A stretch of 64,000 nucleotides of DNA from the IMG/VR virus record IMGVR_UViG_3300020036_009184; one strand, 5' to 3'. The stretch's first letter is position 1. Every line of letters starts with the position of its first letter. Under the pieces are notes generated by a model. That model ran no database searches and was not told the origin of the DNA. It was given only the letters and a program-made list of their open reading frames with translations. This DNA is from an uncultured virus (IMG/VR IMGVR_UViG_3300020036_009184) (lineage: Duplodnaviria; Heunggongvirae; Uroviricota; Caudoviricetes). The translations under genes and the position numbers were made by a program. Below, piece after piece: positions 13,735 through 42,893 of the stretch.

Positions 13735-16700
13735 ATGCCAGATCCGATAGATGAACTGTACAAAACCCTCAATGGAGAAGGGTTGCTCCAAGGCAAGGCT
13801 GCTGATCCTGCGCAATTCCGCACGAATATGGCCAATCCTGAGTCTCGCAAGAAACTCTACGACTTCGTGGCCAAAGCGAAGCCGGATTTGGCTGATATGG
13901 ATTTTGCGAGTTTTGACAAGACCTTCGCCCCGGAGCCAGTAGATGGTTCAAAAAAAAAAGTTGGTGGCGAGTTGCCTACAACTTCTTCTTCGTCTCCGAA
14001 TGCAGATGCCCCAACTGCGGAAGCCGTATCCGTCTCTGAGACTCCAATAGCGGGCGGCGCTCCAAACTCCTTACTGAAAGAATACGGTTCCATGACAGGC
14101 CCCAAGCCTTCATCGGAGCCTTCTCGTTTTGAAGCGCCGGCGCAACTGACCGGCAAAGAAGACCCTCTTGCTGTTGGCGGTATATTCAGGTCACAAATAG
14201 AGGCTGGATATGGAGCAAAAGACCGTACCGCCGATAAGTATCCGTGGCGTAAAGGCGCCCGCGATTTGGAGAAAATCACGTTGTATGGTCAGAAGGCGCT
14301 GGACCAGTCAGTTGCTGCCGAAAAACAGATCGGTGAACGCCTGGGTAAAGATTGGCAGGCGAAGATGACGGCATACGCTCCGATCATTGGCCAGATGAAT
14401 GATAATTCCCGGGACTGGTCGCCGGAAGATCAAAAGAAATACAGCGAAGCCTTATCCTTCTGGTCAGCCCTTAAATCGGACCCGGCATACCCTGTCTGGC
14501 AGAATGGACAAAATGCTGTGCAAAAAGCGCAACAAGAGTTCAATTCCTACGCCGACAAGAATCCGGAGTATGCCAAATTTATGGCAAAAAGCAAGGAAGC
14601 CACCAATGCCGCCGACAATAGCGCATTCAATTCCTGGCAGAACTGGGCGGGTCAAAAACTTACACAGATAGTTTCCGGCGTTGCATCGCTCCCTCGTACT
14701 GTTATTGGTACGGTCGCAAACACGCCAGCATCTGGCCCTGGCGGTATCTTGAGCCAATTAAAAGGAACGGCTGTAAATAAGTGGGCGCAGGAGATGGGAG
14801 ATTGGGCGGATGGCGCGATGGAATATGCAGCCCAAACACATCCGACAGGATCTGGCACCAAGCGGCCATTATGGGAAAAAGTAGCCGACTTCCAGGGTGT
14901 CGGTGTCGTAGTCGATGACCAAGGCCAGCCCGTAAAAGCATATAAAGACAATGTAGAGGTTCCGATGGACGATAAGTTTGTCCGGGACTTCACCGCTTCC
15001 AATGCGGGAGCAAAGGCAGAGAACAAATTTACCGGTATCAAGAACGGCTCGATGAAACTGGCCGATGTTGTTTCGGACCTATATCTCATGCGATACTTAG
15101 GTGGCGGAACAATGGCCGGCACGACTGCGGTGGCATTTGGATTACAACACCAGAATGCCTACCAAACCGCGATAAAGGACTTGAAATTGACCGGAGATGA
15201 AGCCAGCACGTATGCCATGGTATCAGCCGGATTATCCGCTGTTATCGAGGCGACGGTGGGTAATATCGAAACGGCGCCATTAAAACTGGCTACCGCGAAA
15301 GCGCTCGGGATGAAAGAAGCGAAATCTTTGGTCGGGAAAGCATCTATTTACGATGTGGCCAAAGCGGCATGGAAACCGTATCTGCGGGAAATCGGGATGG
15401 AGAACGCGGAGGAATTGCTGGATACTGCAATGCAGACGATGAACAATCAGATGTTCAACTCCATGACCGGCTCCAAATTGGATACACAGGTGCGCCCCGA
15501 AGATATTGCCGAAACAATTGTGATGACAACGCTGGCCACTGCTATTGCTGGCGGTGGTGATGCTCTGCGTAATGGGAAGGGCGAATTGTATGACAATGCG
15601 CTGCAGGCTGCGGTATTAAATCCGGAAGCCTACAATAAGGTTCTCGCTCAACTGGAGCAGGGCGGTGTTATTTCAACCGACCAGGTAGCGTCGCAACAGG
15701 AGCGTATTGCACGTTTGGCAGACATCAATGCCAGACTCCCGGAAACAATGGATGAAGAACAGCGGCGCGAGATTATAGCGCTGGAGGATCGTCGTAGCGA
15801 AATTATTAATGCTGCGGCGGGTACTCCATCCGAAGCGCAGCAAAAAGCGGCGAAACAGGCCGTTACGTCCATTGATACAAAGATCGCTTCGGCTATTCAA
15901 AAGCCGGCAGAAGAAACAGCGGCAGACGCGCCAGCAGAGACGCCAATCACCGAGGATGTGATCATGGCCGAAGATCCAGTTGTTGCAGAAAACGCAACGG
16001 TCGAAACGCCTGCGGTAGCAATCGAACCCCAGGCAATAGAGCCGGTAGCACAACCAGAGCCAGATGTACGCGAAGATCGTACAACTGATCCGTTGATACA
16101 ACAATTCAATGGTGATCGGGTAGAGGCTGTGGCTATTGAAGATAATCCATTTGACACTTATCCGACACAAGATCGGATAGGTGAGGCTCGATTGGTTACG
16201 CAGGAGGAAAGAGTGGCCGAAAACGTGCCCAATCTTGCTGAGGTTGCCCCAGGACGCGATGTAACAATAGCGCAGGCGCAATCTGCCTTCCAAGGCGATG
16301 TGGCTAGCCAGGCGCTTGTAGATGACGCTACGAACCTTGCGCTCAACTCTATGTTCCCGGCACAACGTAAAGCAATCGAATCTAATCCAGGCGCCTTGGC
16401 CTCGCTGCAAAACTTCATCGAGGATAATCTGAATGACGAATCTTTTGCCGATATGCCTATCCGCGATGCGGTCGAGTCTATGGCAAATGAGTTTGTGCAG
16501 AATTTCACTGGCGATAAGCCGGAAACAAGATTGAGCCGGCGCCTTGAACCGGTTACGGTGCAGGATCGGATCGCCCTTGCTTTTGCAGAAGGGGTAAAGG
16601 TTCGCCCACAAGACTTGGCCGGTGATATAGCCGACATTAAAGGCAAAAACGGTATTCGAGTGCAATACACGTCCCGGAATGGTACGCCACTTGATCTGCT

Positions 16701-19700
16701 TGCCCAGGATATCCGGGAAGCGATGGGTGATGATTCTGAAATGGTTGGTATGCAGGATCAGGATGTCAGGAATGAGATTCTGGCATTTATCAATGATAAT
16801 CCGAACGGTCCCGGCAACTACATGCGCGATACGATTGCGAAGCGGGAGCAAACGGACATGACGGCTCAGGAGGGCGATGTTGTTGAAGATGCCGACGTAC
16901 AGGCTGCGGTAGAGGTACAGTCAAAATTATCGGAAGCGGAAGAGTCGGAATTGGCAGCATTTATCGCGTCGTATAATGGCGATATGGATCAACTGCTGAA
17001 CGATTGGGAGAATTGGGATCCATTTTATCCCGCATCTCCCTCTATGGAGCGAATCAATGAACTATCACCAAACATCATATCTGTTTTAGATGAAAAACTC
17101 AATAACATCAGAACTGACCAGGGAACTGGCAAAACTGTTTCAGGTAGCGAGGCGGCGGTACTCGAAAACCAACCAAGCAACAACGGACCCATCGAGGTCG
17201 GGAGCAAGAGCGTCGATGAAGGGAGCCAGAAAACGCCTGATCAGCCGCGAAAGAATGAACTAGACCGGTTGCCGGAAGATGGCCCGGAAGTACTACCTAC
17301 GCCGGTTGTCGCTATTGAAAAGGATGGTGTAGTCGTGACGAACGCCACTGCATTTGCCGATCTTCTGTCCGATGCTGGTGGTGAATATGATCCAGCGAGG
17401 AACGCCTGGGTGTTCCCGGCCGATCAAGCCGATGTGGTCAATGAAATACTGAGCCGGCGCCGTACCGGTGGCGATCCTTTTGTCGATATTTCTGCCCGTA
17501 TTGCGGAGTCATCCGGAATATCCGGACAAGTGGCGGCAATATTGACAACGCCAGGGGCTACACTGAAACGGGCCCGGACCAAACAAAAACTGAAAGCGGC
17601 TACTTCTTTCGAAGATCGCCTGGCCATTGCGCAAGCGCAGCACAATATCAGTCGTGCCAGGGATGAACGGACCAATCGCCGTGCATTGAAGCGATTGAAG
17701 GCTGCATTCCCGAATATTGAGGTAATTACCGATATTGAAACGATTGATAAAGTCAAACGCCAACTTGGCATCACCAAGCCTACGCCAGGCTTTAACTATG
17801 AAGGAAAAGTCTATGTTGATCCTCGTTATGCCAGACCGACAACCGCCATACACGAATATGGTCACGTATGGAACACATGGCTTAAAGAAAACGACCCTGA
17901 GATGTATCAGCGGGGCCTTGAATTGGCACGCCAGAGCGATCAGTTTGAAGCAGTTAAAAGCAACCCTGATTATGCCTACCTCCAAACGGAAGAGGGGCAG
18001 TTGGATGAGGTTGTAGCCACCGCTATTGGTGAGCGGGGGGCATTACTTGGCGATACTAATATTGTGCTGAAATTCCGGCGCTGGCTGTCCGATATATGGT
18101 CGGCTGTACAGCGTGCTTTTGGGTATCAGCCAAGGTTTATGACGCTGCAAGAGTTTGGCGATCACCACGCGGCAATCATGCTGTCTGGTAACGAGGTTAT
18201 GCCCGAGACTTCACGCCGGATCAAACAACTGGAAGATCAACGCGACTCTTTCGGCGAAGGTGGCGATAAAGCAATGGTTGATCGATACAATGCTGCCGTA
18301 CAACTGGAGCAACGTGGTGCCAGTGATGAAGAGGTATTCCTGGCTACTGGGTGGGTCCGGGCTGACGATGGAAAATGGAGATGGGGCATTGACTCTAAAA
18401 CATTCTCCATGAAAGTGGACGAGCAATCGGATATCCCAGAAGATGCTACCCTGGCTGATATTGTAGACTGGCCGGCACTTTGGGAGGCGTATCCGAATAT
18501 TGCCGCATTCCCGGTGTCAAAGATTGCAGAAGATGTCCGGGACCCTTCTATCATTCATAAAATCCAGGAACTGATCATCCAGTCTACCGGTGTCAAAATG
18601 GATAAAAAAGCGACCGAGAATCCGACGCTACAAGAAAAGGCGCCGGAAGAGATGGTTGTTTTGGGTGAAAGCGATGTAAAATCCACTCCGAAATTACAGG
18701 TCGCTACCAATGCCAGTGATTACGCTGCGCGGATGGAGACGGCCAGGGAATTGATTGGCATTGAGATAGGGAAGGATGGGCTGCGCGATATGGAGAATAA
18801 GATCAAGCGCATCTCGGGGGATCTGAATCTGGACATGAATCATGTTCGCCGGATATGGGAAAGCGAGACGACGAAAGCGGGTCTTGGGCGACTTGTTTTG
18901 GATAAAAACGACCTGAATCAGCCTGAACGGAAGATCAAGGATATTTTGCGTCAGGATGCTAAAATCAAGAGTGATCGTCGGAAGAGATTTTTGAAACGCA
19001 AATTCAATACCACGAAATCCTTACCAGAAGAGATTTTTGAGATTGATGAAAAGCGATTGGGCGCCGCAGCCAGCCAATTGAAGGCCGCTGCTTATTTACA
19101 GGCCGATCTGGAGACTGAGATGGAGAAGGAATATACAAAGCCTACGGAAGCACATTGGCGGCATGTGGATAATGTGATGCGCGGCGAAGGGGACTGGTCT
19201 ACGTTGCCAGAGGGCATCCGTAATGCAGCAATGGCGATGCGAAAAGCCCAGGACAATGTATCGCGCGAACTTATCCGGGCTGGTGTAATGGATGGCGAGG
19301 TCGTCTTGACTGTGCTCCAAAATTCCGGCGTAAAGACTGATAAAGCCGAACTAGAAGACTGGAATGGCGTAAATGTATATGAGGCTGTTGGGAAACTACC
19401 ATTTGAGCGTTCGCCTGCCGAGAATGCAGCGATAGATGACTTTTTGAAGTCAAACGAGAATACCATTGGTAACTACTTTTATCGCAGTTACCAGATACAT
19501 GACGATCCACAAAACTGGAAAAATAGGGTCGATCCCAGGACGATGGCCGAGGCGCGTCGGGCATTGCTGGATATGTATAAAAAAGAAATGGAGGCCGTTG
19601 ACCAGGCCAGAACTGATAAGGAGAGCGATCTAACAGCGAAGATTGATGCTATCCAAAGCGATATAGATTCGATTTTGGATGGCTTACAGGGAGAAATCGA

Positions 19701-22020
19701 AGCAGCCGAGCAAAAAGTGAAGGATTTGGAGGCGAAGCAAAAAACTGCTATCGAGAACACTGGCACGCGGAATAAAACTATTGATAAGAGCCTGGGTGCC
19801 GCAGCAAAAGCATTCAGAGCGCTGGAAAAACGTGCCCGGGAGGGTAAAAGATTTGCCGCTGATGACATCGAGGCATTGGCGGTCCTGGATGATCCTGATT
19901 TCCAGAATCTTTCGGTTGCGGCAAAAATGATTGTCCGTAGACGCCGTGACATCATGGATTTGCGGGAACGTATCGAGAACGTGCAGAACTACAAAGAAGG
20001 CTATATGGAGCAGTTGCAGCGCGATATGCAAAATGTAGACGGCAAGATTTACGAGATACTTGAAAAGGACGAGAATCCAAGTTCTCAGGTATCCCGGTCA
20101 AAACTCGGGGCGAAGGATTTGAATATCCTGAAAAAACGGAAGGATATACCCCAGGCGATCAGGGATTTGATGGGCGAATACCACGATCCCCGGGTGAACT
20201 TTGCGAAGTCCATGTTGCGGTCTGTAACATTGCTGGAGAACCAGAAATTCCTAAGCGCGTTGAAGGAGAACTTTGCAGGCACCTATTTTTTGCCACCAAC
20301 AGAGTCTCGCGTTGGATTCGTAGAAATATCTTCCAAGGGCAGCGAAACGATGTCTCCGCTGAACGGGTGGAAAACAACGCCAGAGATACTCTATGCCCTG
20401 AATAACTACTTTGGGGCAAAACAAAGAAGTGACGATTTGACCTCGCAAGTGTTTGACAAGTACATGAAAGTTGTTGCTGGAGTGAAATACGGCAAAACGA
20501 TACTGTCTATTGACACCCATGCACGCAACTTCTTTGGCAACACCGCATTCCTGATAAATAATGCCTACAATCCGTTTGAAAAGAAGGCGCTGTTGGCATT
20601 TAAGGACGTGTGGACGGATATTAAAGATGGAGACGCCAGGGATTACCTGGTAAAACTGACAAAATTACGGGTGATCGGCAACAGCTCGCATTTGGGCAGC
20701 CTGCGTGACCTGGTTGCGGATATGAATGTAAGTGAAGCGGATAGGTATTTCCAGAATCCCGTTGATTCGGCGGCTAAGAAAGCAAGAAAGGTTATCGAGG
20801 AAACATACGGTGCGGAAGATGACTTCTTCAAAATAATAGCGTTTGAGACGGAGAAGGCCCGTTATGCAAATGCTTGGTATGGTCGTCCTTTTAATGAACT
20901 GAGCATGGCTCAACAGGAAGCGGTAGAGCAAAATGCCGCAAAACTGGTCCGCGACCTCATGCCTACCTATTCAATGATCCCGGAAATTGTAAAAGACTTG
21001 AATCGATTGCCGCTGGTTGCAACCTTTGTGGCTTTTAGTTCGGAGATGTTTCGCGTAACCTGGAACCAATACCAGCAGATTGGCCGAGACTTGTCTGATC
21101 CCCGTACTCGGGGTATTGGAATGAAGCGACTGATTGGCGCCGCAATTATGCAGGGCGCAATGACAGCGGGATTAACTGCCATTGGATATCTTCGTTCCGG
21201 GATTGACTGGGAGGAAGATAAGGCAGCGCGTCGTTTCATGCTACCTTGGCAGAAGTTCGGAGCGATTGTTTATGACGATTACGAGCCAGGGAGCCAGTTG
21301 CGCTTTATTAACTCGTCATATACAAACCCGTATGCCTACCAAACAAAGCCACTGGCGGCATTATTCCTAAATTGGGGCAAGACCTGGGAGGATAAGTTTG
21401 GAGAGGCGGTATGGACACTGGCAGAACCGTTTTTATCTTCGGAATTGACAGCAAATACGCTGGGTCAGTTGAAGTACAATACAAATGAACGGACCGGATT
21501 GCATATCTACAATCCTGGGATGGGAATGATAAAGGACTGGTGGAGCGTTGTCAAGTTCTTGGGATGGAACCTACAGCCCGGCATCTCAAAAAAAGTGATA
21601 GATACGATTGGCGCGGTAAAAGGAGAGTCTATGGGTGGGCGCCCTGTAAAAACGGTTGAAGATATTGTACTTGGAACCGTGGGATTACAAGTAGAGCGAA
21701 TGGATATGCAAAAGTCCGTGAGGTCACAATTTGGTCGGCATAAGAAGGGCAAGCAATACGCTCGGGAGTATTTTTCGCACAGTCAAAGGGATTATCCAAA
21801 TGATCCAGAAGGATTGAAGCAACTATTTGATACTGCAACGATTCAGTACAACGACGTGCTGAAAGATACCCGTACCTCAGTAGATGCTGCCCGAGTGATA
21901 GGACTTACCGATCCACAGATATTCTCGTTATTGAAAGATCAGGGCTTTTCCGAAACCGAACGCGCCGCAATTATGACGGGAACTGAAATTATCCCTAAAT
22001 TTGAGGGCTATAATAAATAA
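13735..22020 (+). CDS. Giant polyvalent virion/ejection protein with zincin-like HExxH and LPD23-like region
   Basis: 2761 aa; TAIHEYGHVW motif; ATGWVRADDGKWR...LWEAYP segment; coiled-coil region. Confidence 0.7.
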   Translation: MPDPIDELYKTLNGEGLLQGKAADPAQFRTNMANPESRKKLYDFVAKAKPDLADMDFASFDKTFAPEPVDGSKKKVGGELPTTSSSSPNADAPTAEAVSVSETPIAGGAPNSLLKEYGSMTGPKPSSEPSRFEAPAQLTGKEDPLAVGGIFRSQIEAGYGAKDRTADKYPWRKGARDLEKITLYGQKALDQSVAAEKQIGERLGKDWQAKMTAYAPIIGQMNDNSRDWSPEDQKKYSEALSFWSALKSDPAYPVWQNGQNAVQKAQQEFNSYADKNPEYAKFMAKSKEATNAADNSAFNSWQNWAGQKLTQIVSGVASLPRTVIGTVANTPASGPGGILSQLKGTAVNKWAQEMGDWADGAMEYAAQTHPTGSGTKRPLWEKVADFQGVGVVVDDQGQPVKAYKDNVEVPMDDKFVRDFTASNAGAKAENKFTGIKNGSMKLADVVSDLYLMRYLGGGTMAGTTAVAFGLQHQNAYQTAIKDLKLTGDEASTYAMVSAGLSAVIEATVGNIETAPLKLATAKALGMKEAKSLVGKASIYDVAKAAWKPYLREIGMENAEELLDTAMQTMNNQMFNSMTGSKLDTQVRPEDIAETIVMTTLATAIAGGGDALRNGKGELYDNALQAAVLNPEAYNKVLAQLEQGGVISTDQVASQQERIARLADINARLPETMDEEQRREIIALEDRRSEIINAAAGTPSEAQQKAAKQAVTSIDTKIASAIQKPAEETAADAPAETPITEDVIMAEDPVVAENATVETPAVAIEPQAIEPVAQPEPDVREDRTTDPLIQQFNGDRVEAVAIEDNPFDTYPTQDRIGEARLVTQEERVAENVPNLAEVAPGRDVTIAQAQSAFQGDVASQALVDDATNLALNSMFPAQRKAIESNPGALASLQNFIEDNLNDESFADMPIRDAVESMANEFVQNFTGDKPETRLSRRLEPVTVQDRIALAFAEGVKVRPQDLAGDIADIKGKNGIRVQYTSRNGTPLDLLAQDIREAMGDDSEMVGMQDQDVRNEILAFINDNPNGPGNYMRDTIAKREQTDMTAQEGDVVEDADVQAAVEVQSKLSEAEESELAAFIASYNGDMDQLLNDWENWDPFYPASPSMERINELSPNIISVLDEKLNNIRTDQGTGKTVSGSEAAVLENQPSNNGPIEVGSKSVDEGSQKTPDQPRKNELDRLPEDGPEVLPTPVVAIEKDGVVVTNATAFADLLSDAGGEYDPARNAWVFPADQADVVNEILSRRRTGGDPFVDISARIAESSGISGQVAAILTTPGATLKRARTKQKLKAATSFEDRLAIAQAQHNISRARDERTNRRALKRLKAAFPNIEVITDIETIDKVKRQLGITKPTPGFNYEGKVYVDPRYARPTTAIHEYGHVWNTWLKENDPEMYQRGLELARQSDQFEAVKSNPDYAYLQTEEGQLDEVVATAIGERGALLGDTNIVLKFRRWLSDIWSAVQRAFGYQPRFMTLQEFGDHHAAIMLSGNEVMPETSRRIKQLEDQRDSFGEGGDKAMVDRYNAAVQLEQRGASDEEVFLATGWVRADDGKWRWGIDSKTFSMKVDEQSDIPEDATLADIVDWPALWEAYPNIAAFPVSKIAEDVRDPSIIHKIQELIIQSTGVKMDKKATENPTLQEKAPEEMVVLGESDVKSTPKLQVATNASDYAARMETARELIGIEIGKDGLRDMENKIKRISGDLNLDMNHVRRIWESETTKAGLGRLVLDKNDLNQPERKIKDILRQDAKIKSDRRKRFLKRKFNTTKSLPEEIFEIDEKRLGAAASQLKAAAYLQADLETEMEKEYTKPTEAHWRHVDNVMRGEGDWSTLPEGIRNAAMAMRKAQDNVSRELIRAGVMDGEVVLTVLQNSGVKTDKAELEDWNGVNVYEAVGKLPFERSPAENAAIDDFLKSNENTIGNYFYRSYQIHDDPQNWKNRVDPRTMAEARRALLDMYKKEMEAVDQARTDKESDLTAKIDAIQSDIDSILDGLQGEIEAAEQKVKDLEAKQKTAIENTGTRNKTIDKSLGAAAKAFRALEKRAREGKRFAADDIEALAVLDDPDFQNLSVAAKMIVRRRRDIMDLRERIENVQNYKEGYMEQLQRDMQNVDGKIYEILEKDENPSSQVSRSKLGAKDLNILKKRKDIPQAIRDLMGEYHDPRVNFAKSMLRSVTLLENQKFLSALKENFAGTYFLPPTESRVGFVEISSKGSETMSPLNGWKTTPEILYALNNYFGAKQRSDDLTSQVFDKYMKVVAGVKYGKTILSIDTHARNFFGNTAFLINNAYNPFEKKALLAFKDVWTDIKDGDARDYLVKLTKLRVIGNSSHLGSLRDLVADMNVSEADRYFQNPVDSAAKKARKVIEETYGAEDDFFKIIAFETEKARYANAWYGRPFNELSMAQQEAVEQNAAKLVRDLMPTYSMIPEIVKDLNRLPLVATFVAFSSEMFRVTWNQYQQIGRDLSDPRTRGIGMKRLIGAAIMQGAMTAGLTAIGYLRSGIDWEEDKAARRFMLPWQKFGAIVYDDYEPGSQLRFINSSYTNPYAYQTKPLAALFLNWGKTWEDKFGEAVWTLAEPFLSSELTANTLGQLKYNTNERTGLHIYNPGMGMIKDWWSVVKFLGWNLQPGISKKVIDTIGAVKGESMGGRPVKTVEDIVLGTVGLQVERMDMQKSVRSQFGRHKKGKQYAREYFSHSQRDYPNDPEGLKQLFDTATIQYNDVLKDTRTSVDAARVIGLTDPQIFSLLKDQGFSETERAAIMTGTEIIPKFEGYNK

Positions 22021-27650: not shown

Positions 27651-27916
27651 ATCTAATTGCAGGGATACTCAATGTTGACAGATACAAATGGTGCTACATT
27701 GGACAATTTGGGAAAGATGAAGAGTGGATACATGGAAAAGTCGATACCATTATGAATGGCGGCGACATTGTATCGCCGAAACAAATTATTGATACTCATT
27801 TGGAGAACGATCTAGGAAACCGACTTTTTGTATATTCAGATGAAAGCGTAAAAGCGTCTTTTCTGGCTGAGGCTAAAGAGAAGCGATTATTCGATCCCTA
27901 TAACCCCACACGATGA
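27647..27916 (+). CDS. Hypothetical protein
   Basis: ATGA-coupled on both sides. Confidence 0.5.
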   Translation: MNLIAGILNVDRYKWCYIGQFGKDEEWIHGKVDTIMNGGDIVSPKQIIDTHLENDLGNRLFVYSDESVKASFLAEAKEKRLFDPYNPTR

Positions 27917-28557
27917 ACCACAAAGCAAAAATACTTGAATGGGAAACCATTGGCCGGGCCCTGGCCGGATTACAGGAAAAAGAGCGATGGGATGACCTGC
28001 TACTAATTGCTGCGGCGTGCTTCACCGGATGCCGGCCTGGGGACTGGACCAAGTTTACCTGGAACATCTTTCTGGATGCCAACGGTAAGGCCAAAAAGGA
28101 GACTATGATCGTGGAAAAGAAGCAATTGAACATGGCCAAGTCTCGGGCTGAGAAAAATGGTACCAAGTTTAAGGTAAAAGAACGGCAATTGTTTTTGGTG
28201 CCGCAATTCCGAAGCATACTCGAATTGTGCTGGAATGGTAAAAAACAACCGTATTTGACCACGTATATGTTCCGGGGCAGTTCCGGCCCTCAGAATACGA
28301 GTGGCGGCATATCTACATTTACGGCAAATACGCGGCTTAAACGCCTCGCTGTTGAATTTGGGCTCGATAGTGACATCACCAACTACTATTTCCGTAAAAC
28401 TGCCGCACGACGCATATATGACAGCCAGGAGGATCATACGACCGGCCTTCGGATGGCCCAGATATTTATGAATCACACATCACCGACCTCGACCGCGCAT
28501 TATATCGGATTGACCGAAGATGAAGCGCGGAAGTCGTTTGAAATGCTCACCTTTTAA
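27913..28557 (+). CDS. Tyrosine recombinase (catalytic domain only)
   Basis: TGCRPGD (Arg), YYFRKT (HxxR position), MNHTSPTSTAHYIG (His, catalytic Tyr). Confidence 0.85.
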   Translation: MNHKAKILEWETIGRALAGLQEKERWDDLLLIAAACFTGCRPGDWTKFTWNIFLDANGKAKKETMIVEKKQLNMAKSRAEKNGTKFKVKERQLFLVPQFRSILELCWNGKKQPYLTTYMFRGSSGPQNTSGGISTFTANTRLKRLAVEFGLDSDITNYYFRKTAARRIYDSQEDHTTGLRMAQIFMNHTSPTSTAHYIGLTEDEARKSFEMLTF

Positions 28558-28570
28558 ACTACACCACACA

Positions 28571-29029
28571 ATGAAGAAAAACGACGCATTACAAACCCCT
28601 GAATGGGTTTACAGAAGTCTCGGGACTTTTGATCTTGATCCGTGCGCTGGCCCGACATCGCAGATCGCAACCGAGAACTATCGGCTGCATGACGGACAAG
28701 ATGGTTTAAGCCTGGAATGGAGCGGATTTGTGTGGTGTAATCCGCCATTCAGTCAAAAAGAGATTTGGGCAGAAAAAATGACCGATCATGGCAATGGTAT
28801 CTTGATCTTACCAGAGCGCGGATCGGCTCCCTGGTTTGGACCGCTTGCTAAAAGATGTGGATGCTATTTTGTGATGGGCAAAAAAATCAACTTCATCGGC
28901 GGGCCTTCTAGTAACAATCTTGGGAGTGTTCTTTTCCCGTTTGGATCGTTAGCGGTTGAACGAATTGAAAAATCTGGCTTGCCTGGGCATTTTGTCGATG
29001 TCAGGTATTATCGCCCACGTTATACATAA
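28571..29029 (+). CDS. Phage N6-adenine DNA methyltransferase
   Basis: QTPEW, FDLDPCA, VWCNPPFS motifs. Confidence 0.85.
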   Translation: MKKNDALQTPEWVYRSLGTFDLDPCAGPTSQIATENYRLHDGQDGLSLEWSGFVWCNPPFSQKEIWAEKMTDHGNGILILPERGSAPWFGPLAKRCGCYFVMGKKINFIGGPSSNNLGSVLFPFGSLAVERIEKSGLPGHFVDVRYYRPRYT

Positions 29030-30762: not shown

Positions 30763-30794
30763 GCCCGAAGTGCTCCATCGCTTCGGGTTTTTTT
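30763..30794. terminator. Terminator between convergent genes
   Basis: CCCGAAG...CTTCGGG followed by T8. Confidence 0.7.
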
Positions 30795-32879: not shown

Positions 32880-33755
32880 TTATCTTCCGAGCATCTTTTT
32901 GATGGCTGCGTTTTCTTTTTGCGATTCAGCCAGCATTTGCTCGTATTTTACCGTTCGCAGGTTGATGATATTGAGAATACTATCCACCTGTGCCGGAGTC
33001 AATTGTATGCTTTTTGATGGAACTACAGCGTATGGGTATTGACTTGAAATAAAAGCCTTGTCCTTATCACTGATCGTTGTTCCGCCAGGTATCGCCGTAT
33101 TATTACATGTCCATCGAGCAGGGATGGCATAGTGCATGATGGATACGGGATCGTACATCGAGGCGATCACATTGGCCGGATTGTGGTAATCTAGGATGTT
33201 GAACCTTGTCGTCGCCTCATTCCAACCGTTTTGGTTTCGGGTATCTGTTAGAACATTTGTCTGATTCCAGCAAATACCGCCCGCCTGTTGGTGCTCATGA
33301 AGAAGCCCAGTAGCGTGACCAACTTCATGCCATGCTACCTGCAATCCTGGATATCCCAGATTCATCGTTGGTGAACCCTGAGCGATAAGATTACAGTCGA
33401 TTCCAATATGGGACCATGCCGAGCCAATATTGAACGCTACCCGAATATTGGTGGCGCCAGAAACAGGATACTCAAATTTCAGGTTTGCGTATTTGGCCCA
33501 CTCCGCGAATGCTGCCTTGGCAATATCGCGCTGCGCCGTGGTGCCGCCGATGAATCCGATTTTGATTACCTGGCCAGTTTGCCAAAATCGCCCTTTCATA
33601 CCCACCGCTCGTTTGAGCGCCGGAAGTGGGGCGATGGGCGTGCAATACCATGCCTGGATTGTGTCAGATTGAGTTGGTGTGACCGGGGCAATCGGCTTTG
33701 GCGCGTCTTTGCAGAAGCAAAAACAAAGAATGAGTATTGGGAGGATGTATTTCAT
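32880..33755 (-). CDS. Astacin-like (M12A) zinc metalloprotease, probably exported
   Basis: HEVGHATGLLHEHQ, SIMHY Met-turn, WSHIG; hydrophobic N-terminus with Cys. Confidence 0.85.
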   Translation of the reverse strand: MKYILPILILCFCFCKDAPKPIAPVTPTQSDTIQAWYCTPIAPLPALKRAVGMKGRFWQTGQVIKIGFIGGTTAQRDIAKAAFAEWAKYANLKFEYPVSGATNIRVAFNIGSAWSHIGIDCNLIAQGSPTMNLGYPGLQVAWHEVGHATGLLHEHQQAGGICWNQTNVLTDTRNQNGWNEATTRFNILDYHNPANVIASMYDPVSIMHYAIPARWTCNNTAIPGGTTISDKDKAFISSQYPYAVVPSKSIQLTPAQVDSILNIINLRTVKYEQMLAESQKENAAIKKMLGR

Positions 33756-33788
33756 GGTTACATTGATATGTGAAAAGATTTGCAAATG

Positions 33789-34022
33789 TCACCTTTTTTT
33801 CGTCATGTCAATGCTTTTCACCACACCTTTTGGGTAAAATGATGGATCATGCTCTTCCTCGTTGGTGATCATAGCCCAGGACTTATCCAGGTTATCAAAA
33901 GCATAGTTCTCTGCCTGAGATGCGTCTTCGGCCTTTATTTCGAGTACGCCGTCTTTATCCCATTCCGTGTTGTCGATCAGGTGGCGGTGGGATTGCCCGA
34001 GGGTGATGTAGTAGTTTGGCAT
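33789..34022 (-). CDS. Hypothetical protein
   Basis: 77 aa, YYITLGQSHRH N-terminus. Confidence 0.6.
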   Translation of the reverse strand: MPNYYITLGQSHRHLIDNTEWDKDGVLEIKAEDASQAENYAFDNLDKSWAMITNEEEHDPSFYPKGVVKSIDMTKKR

Positions 34023-34043
34023 GTTGTTGGTTTTTAAATATTC

Positions 34044-34103
34044 GGATAACTGTTGTTTGCCGCTTATTGGCTAAACGCCAACACGTCAAACTTTGAGTTA
34101 GCC
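34044..34103. repeat. attC-like palindromic site 3
   Basis: GGATAAC...GTTTG.CG...TTGGC TAAAC GCCAA...CG.CAAAC...GTTAGCC; contains the stop codon of the C5 MTase gene. Confidence 0.6.
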
Positions 34104-34820
34104 AAAATTGGAAATAAACTTAAATATTCTGAACGCAAGTTGAGGTACAATGGCATTTCCTAACTGTTTCACTCTAATTTTGTCCAGTTTTCGGGGTACC
34201 CCATAAACCACTCGCACCAAGTCGGGTTCAGCCAACCATTTTTCTTGTTCTCCAATATTTGCATTTGTACGGTCAACATCATTGGTACTGTCCCCTTTTG
34301 ATGTGACGGGGCATATACATGATTGTGCGTCCCGTCGCCAGCCGTCAATGTTCGCAATGATCCATACCCTTTTCCTTTGGTGTTTTGCGTCGACGGCACA
34401 AGCAGGTAAAACAAACGCTTCTGCCTCGTAGCCTTCGCCTTCCAAGTCAGCGAGTATATTGTCGAGTTCCATGCTGACGATTCCATAAACATTTTCAGCA
34501 ACAACGAATCTTGGCCTGACTTCCTTAACAACTCTAAACATTTCACCCCAGAGCGAACGGTCGTCATTTGTCCCATTTCGCTTTCCGGCCGTTGAGAAAG
34601 GCTGGCAAGGAAAGCCGCCTGTAATAATGTCAACTTGTCCGCTGTATTTTGTTCCGTCAAATTCTTTAATATCTCCATATCCCTTTGTTTGTGGAAAGTT
34701 TTTTGCAAGGACTTTTTGGCAATCAGTGTCTATTTCAACCCATGCAACCGTTTCCCATCCCATCCATCGGGCTGCTAATGAAAAACCGCCAATACCTTCA
34801 AAAAGTCCTAAATGATTCAT
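34098..34820 (-). CDS. C5-cytosine DNA methyltransferase, alpha-type subunit lacking motif IX
   Basis: LFEGIGG, GGFPCQPFS, AENV, QRKRVWI, LGNAIVP motifs. Confidence 0.92.
   Translation of the reverse strand: MNHLGLFEGIGGFSLAARWMGWETVAWVEIDTDCQKVLAKNFPQTKGYGDIKEFDGTKYSGQVDIITGGFPCQPFSTAGKRNGTNDDRSLWGEMFRVVKEVRPRFVVAENVYGIVSMELDNILADLEGEGYEAEAFVLPACAVDAKHQRKRVWIIANIDGWRRDAQSCICPVTSKGDSTNDVDRTNANIGEQEKWLAEPDLVRVVYGVPRKLDKIRVKQLGNAIVPQLAFRIFKFISNFG
34169..34708 (-). CDS. Overlapping alternative-frame ORF, probable beta subunit of the C5 MTase (true start uncertain)
   Basis: Ends in LNPTWCEWFMGYPENWT (motif IX-like), which is absent from the main frame. Confidence 0.6.
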   Translation of the reverse strand: MQKTFHKQRDMEILKNLTEQNTADKLTLLQAAFLASLSQRPESEMGQMTTVRSGVKCLELLRKSGQDSLLLKMFMESSAWNSTIYSLTWKAKATRQKRLFYLLVPSTQNTKGKGYGSLRTLTAGDGTHNHVYAPSHQKGTVPMMLTVQMQILENKKNGWLNPTWCEWFMGYPENWTKLE

Positions 34821-34834
34821 GTTTTATATTTTTC

Positions 34835-34899
34835 GGCTAACCCCGCTTTCCCGCCCATGCTTTCTAAGCGAGCGCACAGCGGGAAAGCATCAGTTATGC
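34835..34899. repeat. attC-like palindromic site 2
   Basis: GGCTAAC CCC GCTTTCCCGC N24 GCGGGAAAGC ATCA GTTATGC. Confidence 0.75.
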
Positions 34900-34905
34900 G
34901 GAATA

Positions 34906-35781
34906 TTAACCGAGCGAACGTATAATAGCCCACTCATTTTCTGATAGTTCCCATTGCATAGTAAAAACCTTTTCTGCTGCTGCCTTTTCTGCTGCCGCCT
35001 TTTCTGCTGCCGCCTTTTCTGCTGCCGCCTTTTCTGCTGCCGCCTTTTCTGCTGCCGCCTTTTCTGCTATTAGGAACCCGCTGCCAAAGATTGTTTTTCC
35101 GTGTGTTTTTTGTGAAGCCAAGCGCCGGCAATGCTTCGCGCTTTTTTTGTCTATTTTTATAGAAACGCCTCTTTCAACCATAAACGAAATGCCCGACACG
35201 GTAACAACATGGTCTGGGTATTCATATTTTGGAAGCGCATCCTTGTAGGATGCCTCCAATTTTTTGAATTTTTCGTACAGTCCAGCATCTCCAATTATTT
35301 TAGCATCTCCGAACATATTACTCAAAAATGAGGTTTTTACGACCGCCCCGTTTTCATAGGTAATGTTTCCGCCGACCACGATGTGTGTGCAATCAATGTC
35401 GCTGCCAAACAATGTGAGGTGTGGAGCGAAAAGAAAAAAAGGCACATTGTTGGCAATATAGAAACGGCAAATTTTGCTGATTATCGAAAACGGCGGGTTG
35501 TCAATTACAACGTGGTCTGGCTGGTATTCGATGGCCTCAAAGTCTCCGCCAGGGAAAAACGGACGAATGATTTTTTTGCCGGACAAATCGCAGTTTTCGT
35601 TTACATAATCCAGAACCAAATCAAAAACGGCCTTTGGTGTGTAGCAGTCGTCGGTCGTTTTCTTTGCCTCGAATTTTTCAACAAAAGCATCGTAGTCAGT
35701 AAAAAGGGTTTTCCTTTTACTGACTTTTTTATAGGCGAGCCGGATCGTCTCTCCTCCAAATAAATCAACTTCTTTGTACAT
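34906..35781 (-). CDS. Putative amino (N6A/N4C) DNA methyltransferase with AEKAA repeat tail
   Basis: DDCYTP, IRPF, VVIDNPPFS motifs. Confidence 0.75.
   Translation of the reverse strand: MYKEVDLFGGETIRLAYKKVSKRKTLFTDYDAFVEKFEAKKTTDDCYTPKAVFDLVLDYVNENCDLSGKKIIRPFFPGGDFEAIEYQPDHVVIDNPPFSIISKICRFYIANNVPFFLFAPHLTLFGSDIDCTHIVVGGNITYENGAVVKTSFLSNMFGDAKIIGDAGLYEKFKKLEASYKDALPKYEYPDHVVTVSGISFMVERGVSIKIDKKSAKHCRRLASQKTHGKTIFGSGFLIAEKAAAEKAAAEKAAAEKAAAEKAAAEKAAAEKVFTMQWELSENEWAIIRSLG
34968..35068. repeat. 15-bp tandem repeat, about 6.6 copies, encoding AEKAA
   Basis: (CCTTTTCTGCTGCCG)n. Confidence 0.95.
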
Positions 35782-35800
35782 TATTAAATATTAAAAATCC

Positions 35801-35864
35801 GCATAACCCCGCTTTCCCGCCAATATTCCCTAAGCGGTCAAAAGCGGGAAAGCACCAGTTATAC
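35801..35864. repeat. attC-like palindromic site 1
   Basis: GCATAAC CCC GCTTTCCCGC N23 GCGGGAAAGC ACCA GTTATAC; contains the stop codon of the upstream ORF. Confidence 0.75.
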
Positions 35865-36044
35865 CGGCGAAAACGAGAAGTGCGCTACTCCGGCGCCCAT
35901 GGCGGATTGAGTCAGTGTGAGTGGTAAGGCTGGAGTCTTTTTTTGTGCAACACAAACGCATGAATCGCCATGGTACCCACATTCCTCACAGATGAACTCA
36001 GGGGTGGAGTCTACATTGGGTGGAGCAATCTTGTTCTTTGCCAT
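35859..36044 (-). CDS. Small Cys-rich hypothetical protein ending inside attC-like site 1
   Basis: CEECG...CVC; TAA lies within GTATAAC. Confidence 0.45.
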   Translation of the reverse strand: MAKNKIAPPNVDSTPEFICEECGYHGDSCVCVAQKKTPALPLTLTQSAMGAGVAHFSFSPV

Positions 36045-36048
36045 TTTT

Positions 36049-36246
36049 TTAACCTTTTTCATGAATTTCAGAAAGTTTTTCATCCAGGCTTTTCCCGTCC
36101 TGGAATGTGTGATCGTTTTTGAAGACCCCTTTTCTGGTGAGTCCCAAAACAAGATCATCTTCGGTTATTTTACCAGGAGGCAATTCGTCTTTTACCTCTG
36201 CCACTTGCCTCATTCGGCGATAGAGTTCTTCCTGTTTGTCGGTCAT
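36049..36246 (-). CDS. Hypothetical protein
   Basis: 65 aa, coupled to its neighbour. Confidence 0.45.
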   Translation of the reverse strand: MTDKQEELYRRMRQVAEVKDELPPGKITEDDLVLGLTRKGVFKNDHTFQDGKSLDEKLSEIHEKG

Positions 36247-36572
36247 TTTTTTTCAGGCGTTGATTGGTTTTCCATAAAATCTATGACTATAGCGCTTCCG
36301 GCGCCATTCCCAAGATTATGAGTATTGAATAATGGAGTTACTTCGACCTTTGCTGTAAATGACGGCCAACAACGAATATCGATTTTTGTGCAAAGTCCCT
36401 CTATGTTGTCGATCAGAACTTTTGCTGCACGCATTTCTGTGCATTCGACATCCATGCGCTTTTCCTTGAACCATTCAATCAATGCTCGTACTGCTTTACA
36501 ATGCTCCTCCATTTCGAGCAGAATCTTATTGTGCTCAAAATCTACGCTGGCTTCCATTCGGTGTATGTCCAT
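36243..36572 (-). CDS. Hypothetical protein
   Basis: 109-aa ORF in operon. Confidence 0.5.
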   Translation of the reverse strand: MDIHRMEASVDFEHNKILLEMEEHCKAVRALIEWFKEKRMDVECTEMRAAKVLIDNIEGLCTKIDIRCWPSFTAKVEVTPLFNTHNLGNGAGSAIVIDFMENQSTPEKK

Positions 36573-36573
36573 G

Positions 36574-37191
36574 CTATTTCGGCTTTTCCGGGCTCAATGG
36601 TGCAGGCGCCGACCAGCGAATCGAATATCCGTTCGGCCGTTTCAGGTACGCCGCAGTAATTCCTTCTTTTGCCAGGGATAGGTATAGGGCTCCCTGTGTC
36701 GTCTCCCATGCTTCGTCGTAGGCCGGATTATCGTTTTTAGCAGGTACGCCGTATAATTGAAGAGTGATGCCAGGGCCAATAAGTTCGACAGTACGCACAA
36801 ATAAACGCTCTCCTGCGCACTTTTCGCAGAAGATGAAGGTAACACCCCAGGAGACTTGTAGTGTGTCCTTACCGGTGCTCTGGTAGCGTAACATAGGGGT
36901 GTTGGTGCTGTCGAAAATAGCGAAGGTCTGGAAGTTCTGCTGGCCAACGATTTGGGATACCAATGGCGCCGGCTGTTTTGGAGCGATGGTGTCTTTCTGG
37001 GCGGTGGCGGTGAGGGAGGTGAAAAGGCTGAGAATAAAAATAATGTGCTTCATGTGTGAGTTGAATTTTGATGTTAATTTTGGTACTTGCCCTGTTCCAT
37101 TACAAGCAGGGCATGGATCGTCGGTCGGTGTTATGCCGACTATTTTATAGCCTGTTCCCAGGCAGGCGGCGCAAGCTTTGGTGTCGCTCAT
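36574..37191 (-). CDS. Exported protein (internal start 37053, signal ending TAQ) preceded in frame by a DnaJ-type zinc finger
   Basis: CAACLGTG/CPACNGTG followed by MKHIIFILSLFTSLTATAQ. Confidence 0.55.
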   Translation of the reverse strand: MSDTKACAACLGTGYKIVGITPTDDPCPACNGTGQVPKLTSKFNSHMKHIIFILSLFTSLTATAQKDTIAPKQPAPLVSQIVGQQNFQTFAIFDSTNTPMLRYQSTGKDTLQVSWGVTFIFCEKCAGERLFVRTVELIGPGITLQLYGVPAKNDNPAYDEAWETTQGALYLSLAKEGITAAYLKRPNGYSIRWSAPAPLSPEKPK

Positions 37192-37592: not shown

Positions 37593-37755
37593 AAAAAACC
37601 CCGATCACCATTGCGGTGACCAGGGCTTTTATCTTGCTGGTGTTTGAGATACCAACGGTTTTTCCGCATATTTTGGCAACCTGCGAAAAAAAGCGGTGCG
37701 AGGTTTGGAAATGTCTGGCGGACATGACTACTTTCGCACCTATAAAATCATAACA
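37593..37755 (-). ncRNA. Putative antisense RNA with three hairpins and a terminator
   Basis: TAAATTTG at 37760-37767 (-), three stem-loops, terminator at 37593-37630. Confidence 0.55.
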
Positions 37756-41024: not shown

Positions 41025-42327
41025 TGCTGGTGTCGGTTGTAACGGTTAAAGTAATGCCGTCTTCTTTCAGGTCAGCGGCAATAGTAGATGCTATCGCCTG
41101 AATATCCGGCGTGCTCTTGTCCACTTCGCTCAGCGTCAGCGGCATGAGCAGGTGTAGTTCCTCCGGCGTCTCATCTGCGCTATTCTCGCCATTGGACTGG
41201 TACGGCATCAGGAGTATTGCCTGTGCTGCTGTTCCGAAGTGGAAACGGATGAACGGTTCGGTGGCAATGTGATCGAGCACTGCATTGAGGCGAAGAATGC
41301 TGACTCCAATGGCCAGGCTTTTGCTCACGATGTCGTCATGCAGAAATACCATCTCGGTCCCTGACTTCCCGTTGTCCCAGTCTTTGGCGGTGATCGTGAT
41401 GAACTTGTCGCGTTTGGACAAGCGGATCTCGGCCTGTTGCATGACTTTGTTGGCGATTACGCCAGTCCTGGACAGCACATCTTTGAGTGCGCTGGATGGT
41501 ACAAAAAGCGTTTGGTCGTGGTGAGTTCGGATAACAGCGTTGTAATCCGGGAACTTCGCATCCATTTTGACAAACGCGAAGTTCGCAGCGCCTTGATCGA
41601 TATGGATGTGGGTGTCGGATAGCCAGACACGGATCGGATCATCGGTCAAAAACTTGTGCAGGTACTTGACTGCGTCTGCCGGCCACAAGATGTGCTCTTG
41701 ACCTTCCAGGTTGTTGGATACGGAACTTTCATCGGGTTCGATGGCGAAGTCGTTGCACCAGGCTTTTGCCAGTTGTGTTCCGTCTGTGGCGACAAATTCT
41801 GCGGCGCCTGCTGGCCCAATGTTTTGGTAGACGGCGGTCATTGCTGGACGCAGATCGTCTTTGGAGCAACAATATGCCACCTTCCCCATCATTTGGGCCC
41901 ATTTCAAAGGACGGCAGTGGTAGTAGCAATCCTCTTCGTCAGGGGTTGGGATATTCGGGTACTCTTCCGGTGTGCTGGAAAGTGAAAACTCGTACTTCCC
42001 GGCAGGTAATTGCAGCGATATTGTCTGAAATTCGTCTGTTTCAACCGTTATGGTCTGAAAACTGTCGGCGTTGGCCAGGAGTTTTGCCAGGGTTGCGGCA
42101 TCGACCAGGATTGTGCAGTTGTCGGTCGGATCATCCTGAACTACCGGCACCTGTACGGTGGCGAAGCATTCCAGGTTTGTGGCGGTGATGTTCATGATGT
42201 TCTCGGCGACCAGTATACGGAGGTCGGACAAACATGGGATGATCGGGTTTTTGGGGATCAGTGGCAGGATTCGCTTGATTTGATCTAGCGTTTCTTTGCG
42301 AGGGATAGTGAATGTCATGGTGTTCAA
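41017..42327 (-). CDS. dnaN: DNA polymerase III beta sliding clamp
   Basis: KNPIIPCL, ITATNLE, EYP.IP, DDLRPAMT, VATDG, KFPDYNAVI, LLMP motifs. Confidence 0.92.
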   Translation of the reverse strand: MNTMTFTIPRKETLDQIKRILPLIPKNPIIPCLSDLRILVAENIMNITATNLECFATVQVPVVQDDPTDNCTILVDAATLAKLLANADSFQTITVETDEFQTISLQLPAGKYEFSLSSTPEEYPNIPTPDEEDCYYHCRPLKWAQMMGKVAYCCSKDDLRPAMTAVYQNIGPAGAAEFVATDGTQLAKAWCNDFAIEPDESSVSNNLEGQEHILWPADAVKYLHKFLTDDPIRVWLSDTHIHIDQGAANFAFVKMDAKFPDYNAVIRTHHDQTLFVPSSALKDVLSRTGVIANKVMQQAEIRLSKRDKFITITAKDWDNGKSGTEMVFLHDDIVSKSLAIGVSILRLNAVLDHIATEPFIRFHFGTAAQAILLMPYQSNGENSADETPEELHLLMPLTLSEVDKSTPDIQAIASTIAADLKEDGITLTVTTDTSNE

Positions 42328-42839
42328 AGTTTTAGTAATTCTAAAGGAATGATGCGTCGTACTATTTCAGCAGTTTGTAGTTGGCTTTGTTTCCGAGCAG
42401 CAGCATCAGCAGCAGCAGCATAAGCAGCAGCATAAGCATCAGCAGCAGCATAAGCATCAGCAGCAGCATAAGCAGCATAAGCAGCAGCAGCATAAGCATA
42501 AGCATCAGCAGCAGCAGCAGCATAAGCAGCATAAGCATAAGCAGCAGCAGCAGCAAGTTCTTCATCGGTTGCCTCGCCTCGTCCGTATGCTTGAGCAACT
42601 TCTAGTGCTTTAATACTGCGAGGATCTTTCATCAGATGTTTCACAGTGGCTGCGCATTCAGCCTTTGCCGCTGTCATTGTGCGCTTGTCGATACCTGCTC
42701 GTTTTGCAAGCCAAAGCATCCAATCTCCGCGTTGGCATTCAGCCCATATTTCGGGCAGCGTTTTGCCGTCAGCCCATTCACGCGCTACTTTGCAGGCGTC
42801 AAGTGCATTTAATTTGATTTTAATTTCTTGTGCGTTCAT
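42324..42839 (-). CDS. Phage protein (Imm5-like) with Ala/Tyr/Asp low-complexity tract
   Basis: CQRGDWMLWLA...DPRSIKALEVA...GEATDEEL then A/Y repeats. Confidence 0.65.
   Translation of the reverse strand: MNAQEIKIKLNALDACKVAREWADGKTLPEIWAECQRGDWMLWLAKRAGIDKRTMTAAKAECAATVKHLMKDPRSIKALEVAQAYGRGEATDEELAAAAAYAYAAYAAAAADAYAYAAAAYAAYAAADAYAAADAYAAAYAAAADAAARKQSQLQTAEIVRRIIPLELLKL
42397..42554. repeat. GCA/TAA-based degenerate microsatellite within CDS
   Basis: (gcagcagcataa)-type units. Confidence 0.9.
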
Positions 42840-42893
42840 TGTGGTGTTCAAAGTTGAATAGTGATACAAAGGATGGTGAATATCCACCACCAG

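Follow-up and report, generated by a model that had tools for sequence, protein, structure and literature searches.

The 64,000-nucleotide stretch of IMG/VR record IMGVR_UViG_3300020036_009184, from an uncultured virus of the Caudoviricetes (the whole stretch is hereafter 'the window'), carries at 34044-35864 three imperfect palindromes that bound two genes, one for a C5 cytosine DNA methyltransferase (gene 1) and one for a probable N6-adenine (amino) DNA methyltransferase (gene 2). As the best explanation of the evidence as a whole, we think it probable that the palindromes are attC-type folding recombination sites and that the methyltransferase genes are mobile cassettes. Alignments of related loci show units of this kind apparently gained, lost, reordered and shared between unrelated phages, exactly at an invariant TAAC box within the sites.

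Layout of the array

The features of the array are listed below; scores are those of a covariance model (R1) described in the next section, and cassette borders follow the junction rule of the site family.

35859-36158, minus strand: upstream backbone open reading frame (ORF) of 99 amino acids, no family, ending in the TAAC box of site 1
35804-35861, minus strand: site 1, stems 35811-35820/35844-35853, leading the cassette with gene 2; R1 match 35792-35873, minus, 78.7 bits
34906-35781, minus strand: gene 2, 291 amino acids, probable N6-adenine (amino) DNA methyltransferase with a C-terminal (AAEKA)n repeat; phrog_21498
34838-34896, minus strand: site 2, stems 34845-34854/34879-34888, leading the cassette with gene 1; R1 match 34826-34908, minus, 87.7 bits
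34098-34820, minus strand: gene 1, 240 amino acids, short C5 cytosine DNA methyltransferase
34047-34100, minus strand: site 3, class B, resident site ahead of the 77-amino-acid ORF; R1 match 34035-34112, minus, 56.9 bits
33789-34022, minus strand: ORF of 77 amino acids, led by site 3
34894-35858, minus strand: putative cassette A, 965 nt, comprising the site 1 hairpin, leader, gene 2 and TAA
34098-34893, minus strand: putative cassette B, 796 nt, comprising the site 2 hairpin, leader, gene 1 and TAA

On the plus strand, sites 1 and 2 read TAAC-CCC-GCTTTCCCGC-loop(23/24)-GCGGGAAAGC-NNCA-GTTA, and site 3 repeats this layout in other sequence, reading TAAC-TCAAA-stem...stem-AACA-GTTA on the coding strand. 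Their centres contain CTAAGCG (sites 1 and 2) or CTAAACG (site 3). Folded on both strands as single-stranded DNA, the sites beat dinucleotide shuffles with z of -2.9 to -3.2 in five of the six strands, the exception being site 3 on the plus strand at -1.6. The motif TAAC-N40-60-GTTA was rarer in the 64 kb than expected by chance (5 found, 13.5 expected), and three of the five occurrences are sites 1-3. A sigma-70-type scan, with other promoter types, Bacteroidota promoters and long loops outside its scope, gave no promoter-like or terminator-like match on the three window sites or their leaders. Classical terminator-like hairpins, strong and real transcription stops, lie elsewhere in the window at 37594-37630 (minus strand) and 30763-30788 (plus strand); both have a T-run, which is absent from the cassette sites.

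A family of covarying hairpin sites

The exact 10+10-base hairpin recurred at 37 IMG/VR loci. Once duplicates, one end-cut locus and five loci without both boxes had been dropped, 32 unique sites remained, all of which have TAAC and GTTA, with three bases from TAAC to the stem and four from the stem to GTTA in the plus-strand layout, and variable bases beyond the boxes. Scanning the hairpin loci for TAAC...GTTA with a stem gave 76 candidates against 1.3 in shuffles and also brought up further stem families of equal plan, including relatives of site 3. In an alignment of 66 sites on the coding strand, TAAC and GTTA were invariant in 66 of 66 (the scan had required both boxes) and nine of the ten stem pairs carried compensatory double changes. 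Paired cells made up 92.1% of this alignment against 36-45% with the partner slid, percentages affected by site selection as weighed below, and double-change cells numbered 101 against 24.4 in shuffles and a maximum of 42 in slid controls.

The covariance model R1, built from these 66 sites and dominated by one sequence family, matched the three sites in the window and nothing else in its 64 kb. Five other long phage contigs yielded 23 matches at E<=0.001, grouped three to six together, and 76 metagenome contigs yielded 181 sites, 173 of them with TAAC and GTTA at the expected place; there were no matches in 124,275 nt of control phage DNA around methylase homologues, and no Rfam family matched the sites. 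Judged by this family evidence, which excludes chance, the three palindromes belong to a real and specific family of sites. Its members are uniform in build: coding-strand spacers are 4/3 or 5/4 nt, the 5' spacer being constantly 1 nt longer than the 3' spacer, the core is 58-60 nt long in 150 of 182 unique cores, and the apical loop, of conserved length, reads GNNTA with TA near-invariant. Main-family stems are perfect over 10 bp and free of bulges; one sub-family has, by eye, a 4-nt bulge on the coding-strand 3' arm.

Orientation and complementary cassette ends

Sites and genes share a direction. None of the 76 metagenome contigs carried sites on mixed strands, in 79 of 83 segments between sites the longer ORF had the sense of the sites, and a single sense ORF of 55-287 amino acids occupied at least 60% of 71 of these segments. 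In 44 of the 83 its stop codon was the TAA of the next box, with which the viral set agrees; in the window, the stop codons of ORF 35859-36158 (35859-35861) and of gene 1 (34098-34100) fall inside the boxes of sites 1 and 3, respectively.

The ends of each unit also match each other. Those of cassette A, GTTATGCGGA and TCCGCATAAC, which flank 34906-35781, are complementary over 10 bp, and those of cassette B, GTTAGCC and GGCTAAC, flanking 34098-34820, over 7 bp; the two ends within any one window site match only in TAAC/GTTA and scattered bases. Across 88 non-identical adjacent pairs of sites on the metagenome contigs, the bases after GTTA were complementary to those before the TAAC of the next site over a mean run of 3.74 nt, compared with 0.94+-0.15 in permuted pairs and 0.77 within sites. 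Runs of at least 3 nt occurred in 68 of the 88 pairs, where 5,000 permutations gave 12.9 on average and 26 at most, and in the viral set the mean run was 2.24 against 0.92+-0.21 (38 pairs). An earlier, sequence-only reading of this DNA had described the three palindromes with their attC-like layout and CTAA(G/A)CG centres, the two stop codons inside TAAC boxes, the absence of a visible promoter, and the complementarity of the ends flanking each gene but not of those of a single site; each of these was found again here, and the last extends to the family at large.

Junctions, gain and loss of units

To locate the points at which units are joined, all oriented loci were compared over segments of at least 150 nt and at least 95% identity, contig ends being excluded. 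The breakpoints fell as follows.

TAAC box: 41 5' ends and 23 3' ends, plus 15 3' ends with a called site in only one partner
GTTA box: 0 5' ends and 0-1 3' ends
Elsewhere: 42 5' ends and 34 3' ends

In total, 64-79 breakpoints lie at the TAAC box, 5' of the hairpin, against 0-1 at GTTA. Segment starts peaked on the T of TAAC (21 of 44) with none later, and segment ends never fell before the C. The viral set contains six pairs with identical hairpin and downstream sequence but differing upstream sequence, the reverse pattern occurring in no pair. Because breakpoints are one-sided at TAAC and stem arms are always matched, the mobile unit would comprise the hairpin, GTTA, the leader, the ORF and TAA; on this comparison, the hairpin appears to travel with the gene downstream of it, so that the site leads the gene. 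Two other readings of the breakpoints were rejected: assembly chimeras at repeats would put breakpoints at both repeat edges, and a junction at the hairpin apex, as in tandem terminal-inverted-repeat elements, conflicts with arms that match in every hairpin despite several stem families per array.

Individual loci illustrate gain, loss and reordering. Read base by base, a 784-nt unit following ...TAAC is present in locus L010 and missing from L006, and a 1.9-kb TAAC-bounded unit is present in L028 and missing from L211 and L253. Two units behind the same gene stand in opposite order in L006 and L010. A different kind of insertion occurs at L205:1075-1745 and L249:2417-2866 relative to L019:1553/L020:4676, where 450-671 nt interrupt otherwise identical sequence upstream of a DnaB-like helicase region; bounded by repeated ATCG, not TAAC, it could be an intron or a homing element.

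For the window itself, the family rule places the junctions at 34097/8, 34893/4 and 35858/9, each at plus-strand G|TTA. Contigs from four public runs, of wastewater or activated sludge, align with the sites and lose their match precisely at 34100, 34838, 34896, 35803/4 and 35861, in partial agreement with these junctions; being assembled contigs, they show presence rather than frequencies or circles, and for runs X2, X4 and X9 only the contig-covered parts of 33000-37000 are informative. In run X1 the backbone is present over 33826-34100 and 35962-37000 with full or nearly full identity, but the sequence after the GTTA at 34100 is different. Run X2 gave no contig on the window backbone and one of 771 nt covering the C5 methylase unit at 34083-34845 with one differing letter in 763. 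We infer that the two window cassettes were inserted sequentially. The ORF of 77 amino acids downstream (33789-34022) may be a third, terminal cassette gene, since a weak homologue adjoins the sites of another carrier phage (G003 11306-11536).

The central claim of the sequence-only reading, an integron-like array whose genes are acquired and shuffled at a conserved core, is thus supported, as far as sequence comparison reaches, by the covarying site family, co-orientation, complementary ends, gain and loss, order swaps, and methyltransferases as the cargo most often recognised; related loci differ at the junctions (L010 against L006, L028 against L211 and L253, and run X1). Its crossover is corrected to the other box, G|TTA on the plus strand, with a polarity opposite to that of classical integron cassettes, and the borders it had drawn at 34050-34840 and 34841-35806 give way, on the one-sided breakpoints, to 34098-34893 and 34894-35858.

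The same data bear on a reading in which the hairpins are regulatory. T4-type phages shuffle accessory genes and form mini-circles by way of cassettes of promoter plus stem-loop, the PeSL elements (Arbiol et al. 2010, PMC2839356), and the hairpins here might likewise be transcription or RNA-stability elements lying among accessory genes, whose repetition makes them hot spots of homologous recombination or polymerase template switching without a site-specific enzyme, mini-circles again being possible. In both systems, stem-loops are repeated between non-essential genes of hyperplastic regions and mediate the gain, loss and swapping of these genes as modules, and PeSL cassettes are the closest phage-native analogue of what we describe. 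A regulatory role would suit the constant agreement of site and gene direction, the position of sites directly after stop codons (with the stop inside the box in 44 of 83 segments), the conserved apical loop and loop length, and the failure to find a shared recombinase among carriers. We nevertheless consider this reading unlikely. Exchange between repeats predicts breakpoints at both edges, and the count was 64-79 at TAAC to 0-1 at GTTA; complementarity of the ends of each gene, with none inside sites, has no role in it; and whereas PeSLs pair a promoter with a terminator and recombine by homology, the window sites show no sigma-70-like promoter and terminator pattern (Bacteroidota promoters and long loops lay outside the scan), match nothing in Rfam, and have one-sided 4-base junctions with complementary ends. 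Comeau et al., in 2014, reportedly also treated PeSLs as mobile regulatory cassettes of T4-type phages.

Proposed mechanism and candidate enzymes

In the recombination reading, a cassette unit would run from the hairpin through GTTA and a leader of ~20-35 nt to a single ORF, closing with TAA, usually the ORF's own stop codon. The invariant TAAC box, which on the coding strand precedes the hairpin by 4-5 nt, would be the place of cutting and joining, and excision between two neighbouring sites would yield a circle. The unit ends brought together in that circle, complementary over 7-12 bp, would pair and extend the stem into a full R-box, after which the circle could enter any other site of the family. 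The reaction would be a tyrosine-recombinase strand exchange on the folded coding strand, like that of the integron integrase on the attC bottom strand. As no recombinase is common to the carrier phages, the enzyme would act in trans and come from the host or from some co-resident element. What the phage would gain is a fast turnover of counter-defence genes, chiefly DNA methyltransferases protecting against restriction.

Two sets of traits speak to the strand and the chemistry. Integron integrases are reported to cleave the folded bottom strand between the A and C of AAC, and attC bottom strands to be purine-/G-rich, more stable in their fold and often to have GAA in the terminal loop (Nivina et al. 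2016). In the present family, the junction is located in the 5' AAC box of the coding strand, and the coding strand is the more stably folded one in 160 of 182 unique cores (mean -1.67 kcal/mol, Wilcoxon p 3e-21), has an excess of G in 152 of 182 and carries GAA in its loop in 85 cores, the opposite strand in 13. Since junction side and strand traits are independent of each other and agree, we think that, by analogy with integrons, the likeliest mechanism is a tyrosine recombinase working on the coding strand in folded form. Other systems work along comparable lines: in the Xer-dependent pdif modules of Acinetobacter plasmids and the folded-strand integration of CTX phage at attP, a tyrosine recombinase provided in trans has short sites or a folded single strand as its substrate, and such sites delimit the modules.

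Some of these features would also be expected if a single-strand transposition enzyme, of the HUH/Y1 type or another, cut at a tetranucleotide 5' of the hairpin and inserted units 3' of TAAC. The one-sided junction lies 4-5 nt 5' of the hairpin, strand specificity is strict, and insertion takes place beside a 4-base target that every unit regenerates. Against this stand one hairpin per unit, not two subterminal ones, and palindromic AAC...GTT boxes with complementary ends, which fit a recombinase reading a duplex R-box; no HUH/Y1-type enzyme was noticed near the arrays, though no search was aimed at one. We regard this route as very improbable.

The sequence-only reading had put forward the window's own tyrosine recombinase-like protein (27913-28557, 214 amino acids), but that candidate found no support: profile searches rejected it as an integron integrase, and its PHROG family, phrog_216, occurs in 2 of 15 other site-bearing viral contigs. 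PF00589 is present in one of the five long carrier contigs, in a protein scoring 32 bits on TIGR02249, and a carrier rated 100% complete has neither PF00589 nor phrog_216. No recombinase common to the carriers was found among contigs that are mostly fragments. In the 731 kb of site-bearing DNA, a Bacteroidota-type tyrosine integrase abuts the end of an array at two loci, L028:1482-2690 (plus strand) and L237:1490-1990. The L028 protein combines Arm-DNA-bind_5, Phage_int_SAM_5 and catalytic domains, its gene converges on the array and has its stop codon within the terminal site's box, and it sits inside the 1.9-kb TAAC-bounded unit missing from L211 and L253; in IMG/VR it matched only itself. 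This integrase may belong to the system as an autonomous member, or it may be no more than cargo.

A more specific form of the recombination reading, which we advance tentatively, is that the array belongs to a mirror-polarity phage counterpart of the integron, a hairpin-led pool of counter-defence cassettes that unrelated Bacteroidota-type phages would exchange by means of a dedicated non-IntI tyrosine recombinase, cutting TAA|C on the folded coding strand. The cargo of such a pool would be DNA methyltransferases, an Acb2/Tad1-like sponge and many small unknown genes, and the candidate enzymes would be a host or phage Xer-like enzyme or the integrase of rare autonomous units.

Cassette cargo

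Gene 1 is firmly assigned from its profile matches: it hits PF00145 with E 7.5e-46 and 157.5 bits (cut-off 22), covering Pfam model positions 2-161 of 324, and TIGR00675 with 119.5 bits (cut-off 100.65), as expected of a C5 cytosine DNA methyltransferase. Gene 2 had been counted as a second methyltransferase, an assignment that is probable. It has no Pfam methylase match, and neither a PDB sequence search nor Foldseek returned anything significant; its family is very large and unnamed (7,885 of 7,999 scored candidates at E<=1e-5), with no Pfam domain among the 120 relatives listed. The motif D94-N95-P96-P97-F98 is invariant across 23 relatives. For the structure predicted for it (pLDDT 70.9, a moderate confidence), the matches are nearly all class-I S-adenosylmethionine-dependent methyltransferases, at middling Z of 5-7.4, among them M.TaqI, Dam enzymes, type I M subunits and many N6-adenine DNA/RNA enzymes, and motif and fold together point to a probable N6-adenine (amino) DNA methyltransferase. 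The C-terminal (AAEKA)n of gene 2 corresponds to 15-nt tandem repeats at 34968-35072, which are partly complementary to a longer 9/12-nt GCA/GCT-rich repeat at 42369-42587 within ORF 42324-42890.

Elsewhere in the family, DNA methyltransferases appear to be the commonest recognisable cargo. The counts of ORFs by Pfam match were as follows.

Viral loci, site-adjacent ORFs (n=67): 5 DNA methyltransferases, 59 without a Pfam match
Viral loci, other Pfam matches: an Acb2/Tad1 hairpin-domain protein (E 1.3e-10), a caspase-domain protein and a DnaB-like helicase
Metagenome cassette ORFs (n=82): 8 DNA methyltransferases (6 N6_N4, 2 C5), 67 without a Pfam match
Metagenome cassette ORFs, other Pfam matches: 2 HTH, 2 DUF3307, 2 DUF1541 and 1 PAPS reductase

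The Acb2/Tad1 match is an ORF of 72 amino acids right behind a site (L008:1667-1885, minus strand; PF24729, E 1.3e-10), and the protein, apparently cassette-borne, is likely a cyclic-nucleotide sponge against CBASS/Thoeris. The sites flag small unknown phage genes under exchange, and with about 10% of the cargo already recognisable as methyltransferases that evade restriction, they offer a guilt-by-association route to new anti-defence genes. More broadly, beyond general mosaicism, the speed at which phages turn over accessory and counter-defence genes is largely unexplained, and a site-specific cassette system common to unrelated phages would be a concrete mechanism, one that predicts the folding strand, the cut position and the circle formed.

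Carriers and candidate hosts

The carrier phages appear otherwise unrelated. Between the window and the five other long carrier contigs there were four weak protein matches, and in BLASTP clustering of the six carrier genomes no family of proteins extended beyond four of them. The window backbone has no relatives in IMG/VR on either side of the array, and GenBank phages held no relatives of the array region beyond the methylase core and no copies of site 1.

A Lewinellaceae-type, or Bacteroidota, host is suggested, because a Lewinellaceae genome holds sites and because the integrase domains are of Bacteroidota type. In this metagenome-assembled genome, family sites lie on short contigs, and large contigs carry solitary GAAC...GTTC variants. 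These variants of the Lewinellaceae genome, G006 (L285:5412-5496, L286:7630-7712 and L287:7496-7579), retain the apical GCTTAGG and keep only AAC/GTT of the boxes; they run antisense to neighbouring genes, and one adjoins genes for a D12-class N6-adenine methyltransferase and an SNF2/ResIII helicase. In a bacterial genome collection, at least 120 exact-hairpin matches were listed; most of those listed are unrelated hairpins, and two are family members, on contigs of 6-9 kb.

Relation to integrons

Phage CALINs (clusters of attC sites lacking integron integrases) with methylase cassettes are already known. Qi et al. 2023 (PMC9892861) report three complete integrons, one In0 and 17 CALINs from a screen of 10,705 NCBI phage genomes, with some arrays in virulent phages, five methyltransferases among the cassettes, and recombination by IntI1 at five of six phage sites. 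The present sites are like those of integrons and CALINs in many respects: they are imperfect palindromes in which AAC...GTT is the only invariant sequence, an unpaired spacer separates stem from box, and covariation keeps the structure; arrays are co-oriented, with one small promoterless ORF per site and stops often inside the box; the ends of a cassette are complementary to each other and not to the neighbouring half-site; and one strand, G-rich, folds better, with DNA methyltransferases as cargo in phages. In the literature on integrons, CALINs and phage anti-defence cassettes, the Qi supplements lying outside its scope, our search found no description of hairpin-led cassettes or of this site family. 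What sets the present sites apart is reversed polarity, bulge-free stems, a fixed loop with a conserved apex, a spread over unrelated uncultured phages and no integrase, features that were likewise missing from the literature searched.

Several of these differences, and some features of the data, weigh against the interpretation of the palindromes as attC-type recombination sites. The polarity is opposite to that of every classical cassette: in those, the crossover G|TT stands at the far end of attC, after an ORF on the top strand, and here the junction box lies 5' of the coding-strand hairpin, with ORFs on the bottom-like strand. Main-family stems are without the extrahelical bases that integron integrases use, and the loop length is fixed and the apical GNNTA conserved, in contrast to the variable terminal structure of attC. 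Perfect stems, a fixed loop and a site direction matching transcription would also suit a role at the RNA level. Neither IntI nor attI is present: TIGR02249 searches found no integron integrase in the window, in the 731,420 nt of site-bearing DNA or in two metagenome-assembled genomes that carry family sites, and one of 81 genomes of the candidate host family has such an integrase, with no R1 site beside it. As regards the data, the support for recombination is wholly comparative; the metagenome contigs may often be copies of a few phages, identical segments having been removed and near-identical ones kept; and the sites were partly picked for stems and TAAC/GTTA boxes, so that pairing percentages are inflated by construction, although the diversity of matched stem arms is not produced by that selection.

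If the likeness to attC were taken at face value, the array could be ordinary integron debris, a CALIN fragment from a host chromosome lodged in a phage, its classical attC sites served by a host integrase. The general layout is that of attC, the methyltransferase-bearing phage CALINs and the IntI1 recombination of five of six phage sites (Qi et al. 2023, PMC9892861) set a precedent, and the one genome of the candidate host family does have a true integron integrase. Even so, we judge this quite improbable. ORFs on the bottom-like strand and an ORF-distal junction are the reverse of bacterial cassettes; near-identical sites stand in unrelated phage backbones and are almost absent from the bacterial genomes scanned, with two family members among the at least 120 exact-hairpin matches listed; and the chromosomal relatives in the Lewinellaceae genome are solitary variants. 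R1, dominated as it is by one sequence family, gives no site beside the sole integrase found; the same model detected none in the published case of Polaribacter phage P12002L. The integrase genome, G050 (L295:831-4542; 428.5 bits on TIGR02249), has as the first gene on the cassette side one with an SPPY amino-methyltransferase motif, identified by eye. Reversed polarity and a missing IntI would set the phage cassette pool apart from the bacterial one, and a separate pool bears on claims that phage-borne attC arrays move integron cassettes between bacteria.

Other features of the window

The window derives from a large phage that encodes virion structural proteins, an endolysin, a DNA polymerase/primase, a sliding clamp and GroEL, with minus-strand genes spanning about 53.8 kb down to 30.8 kb. 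At 27913-29029, a gene for a Dam-type N6-adenine methyltransferase (PF05869) comes after the one for the short tyrosine recombinase-like protein; this third methylase lies outside the array and is without family sites. A virion protein of 2,761 amino acids is encoded at 13735-22020, and the GroEL-type chaperonin lies at 61868-63601 (phrog_5725, E 2.5e-70).

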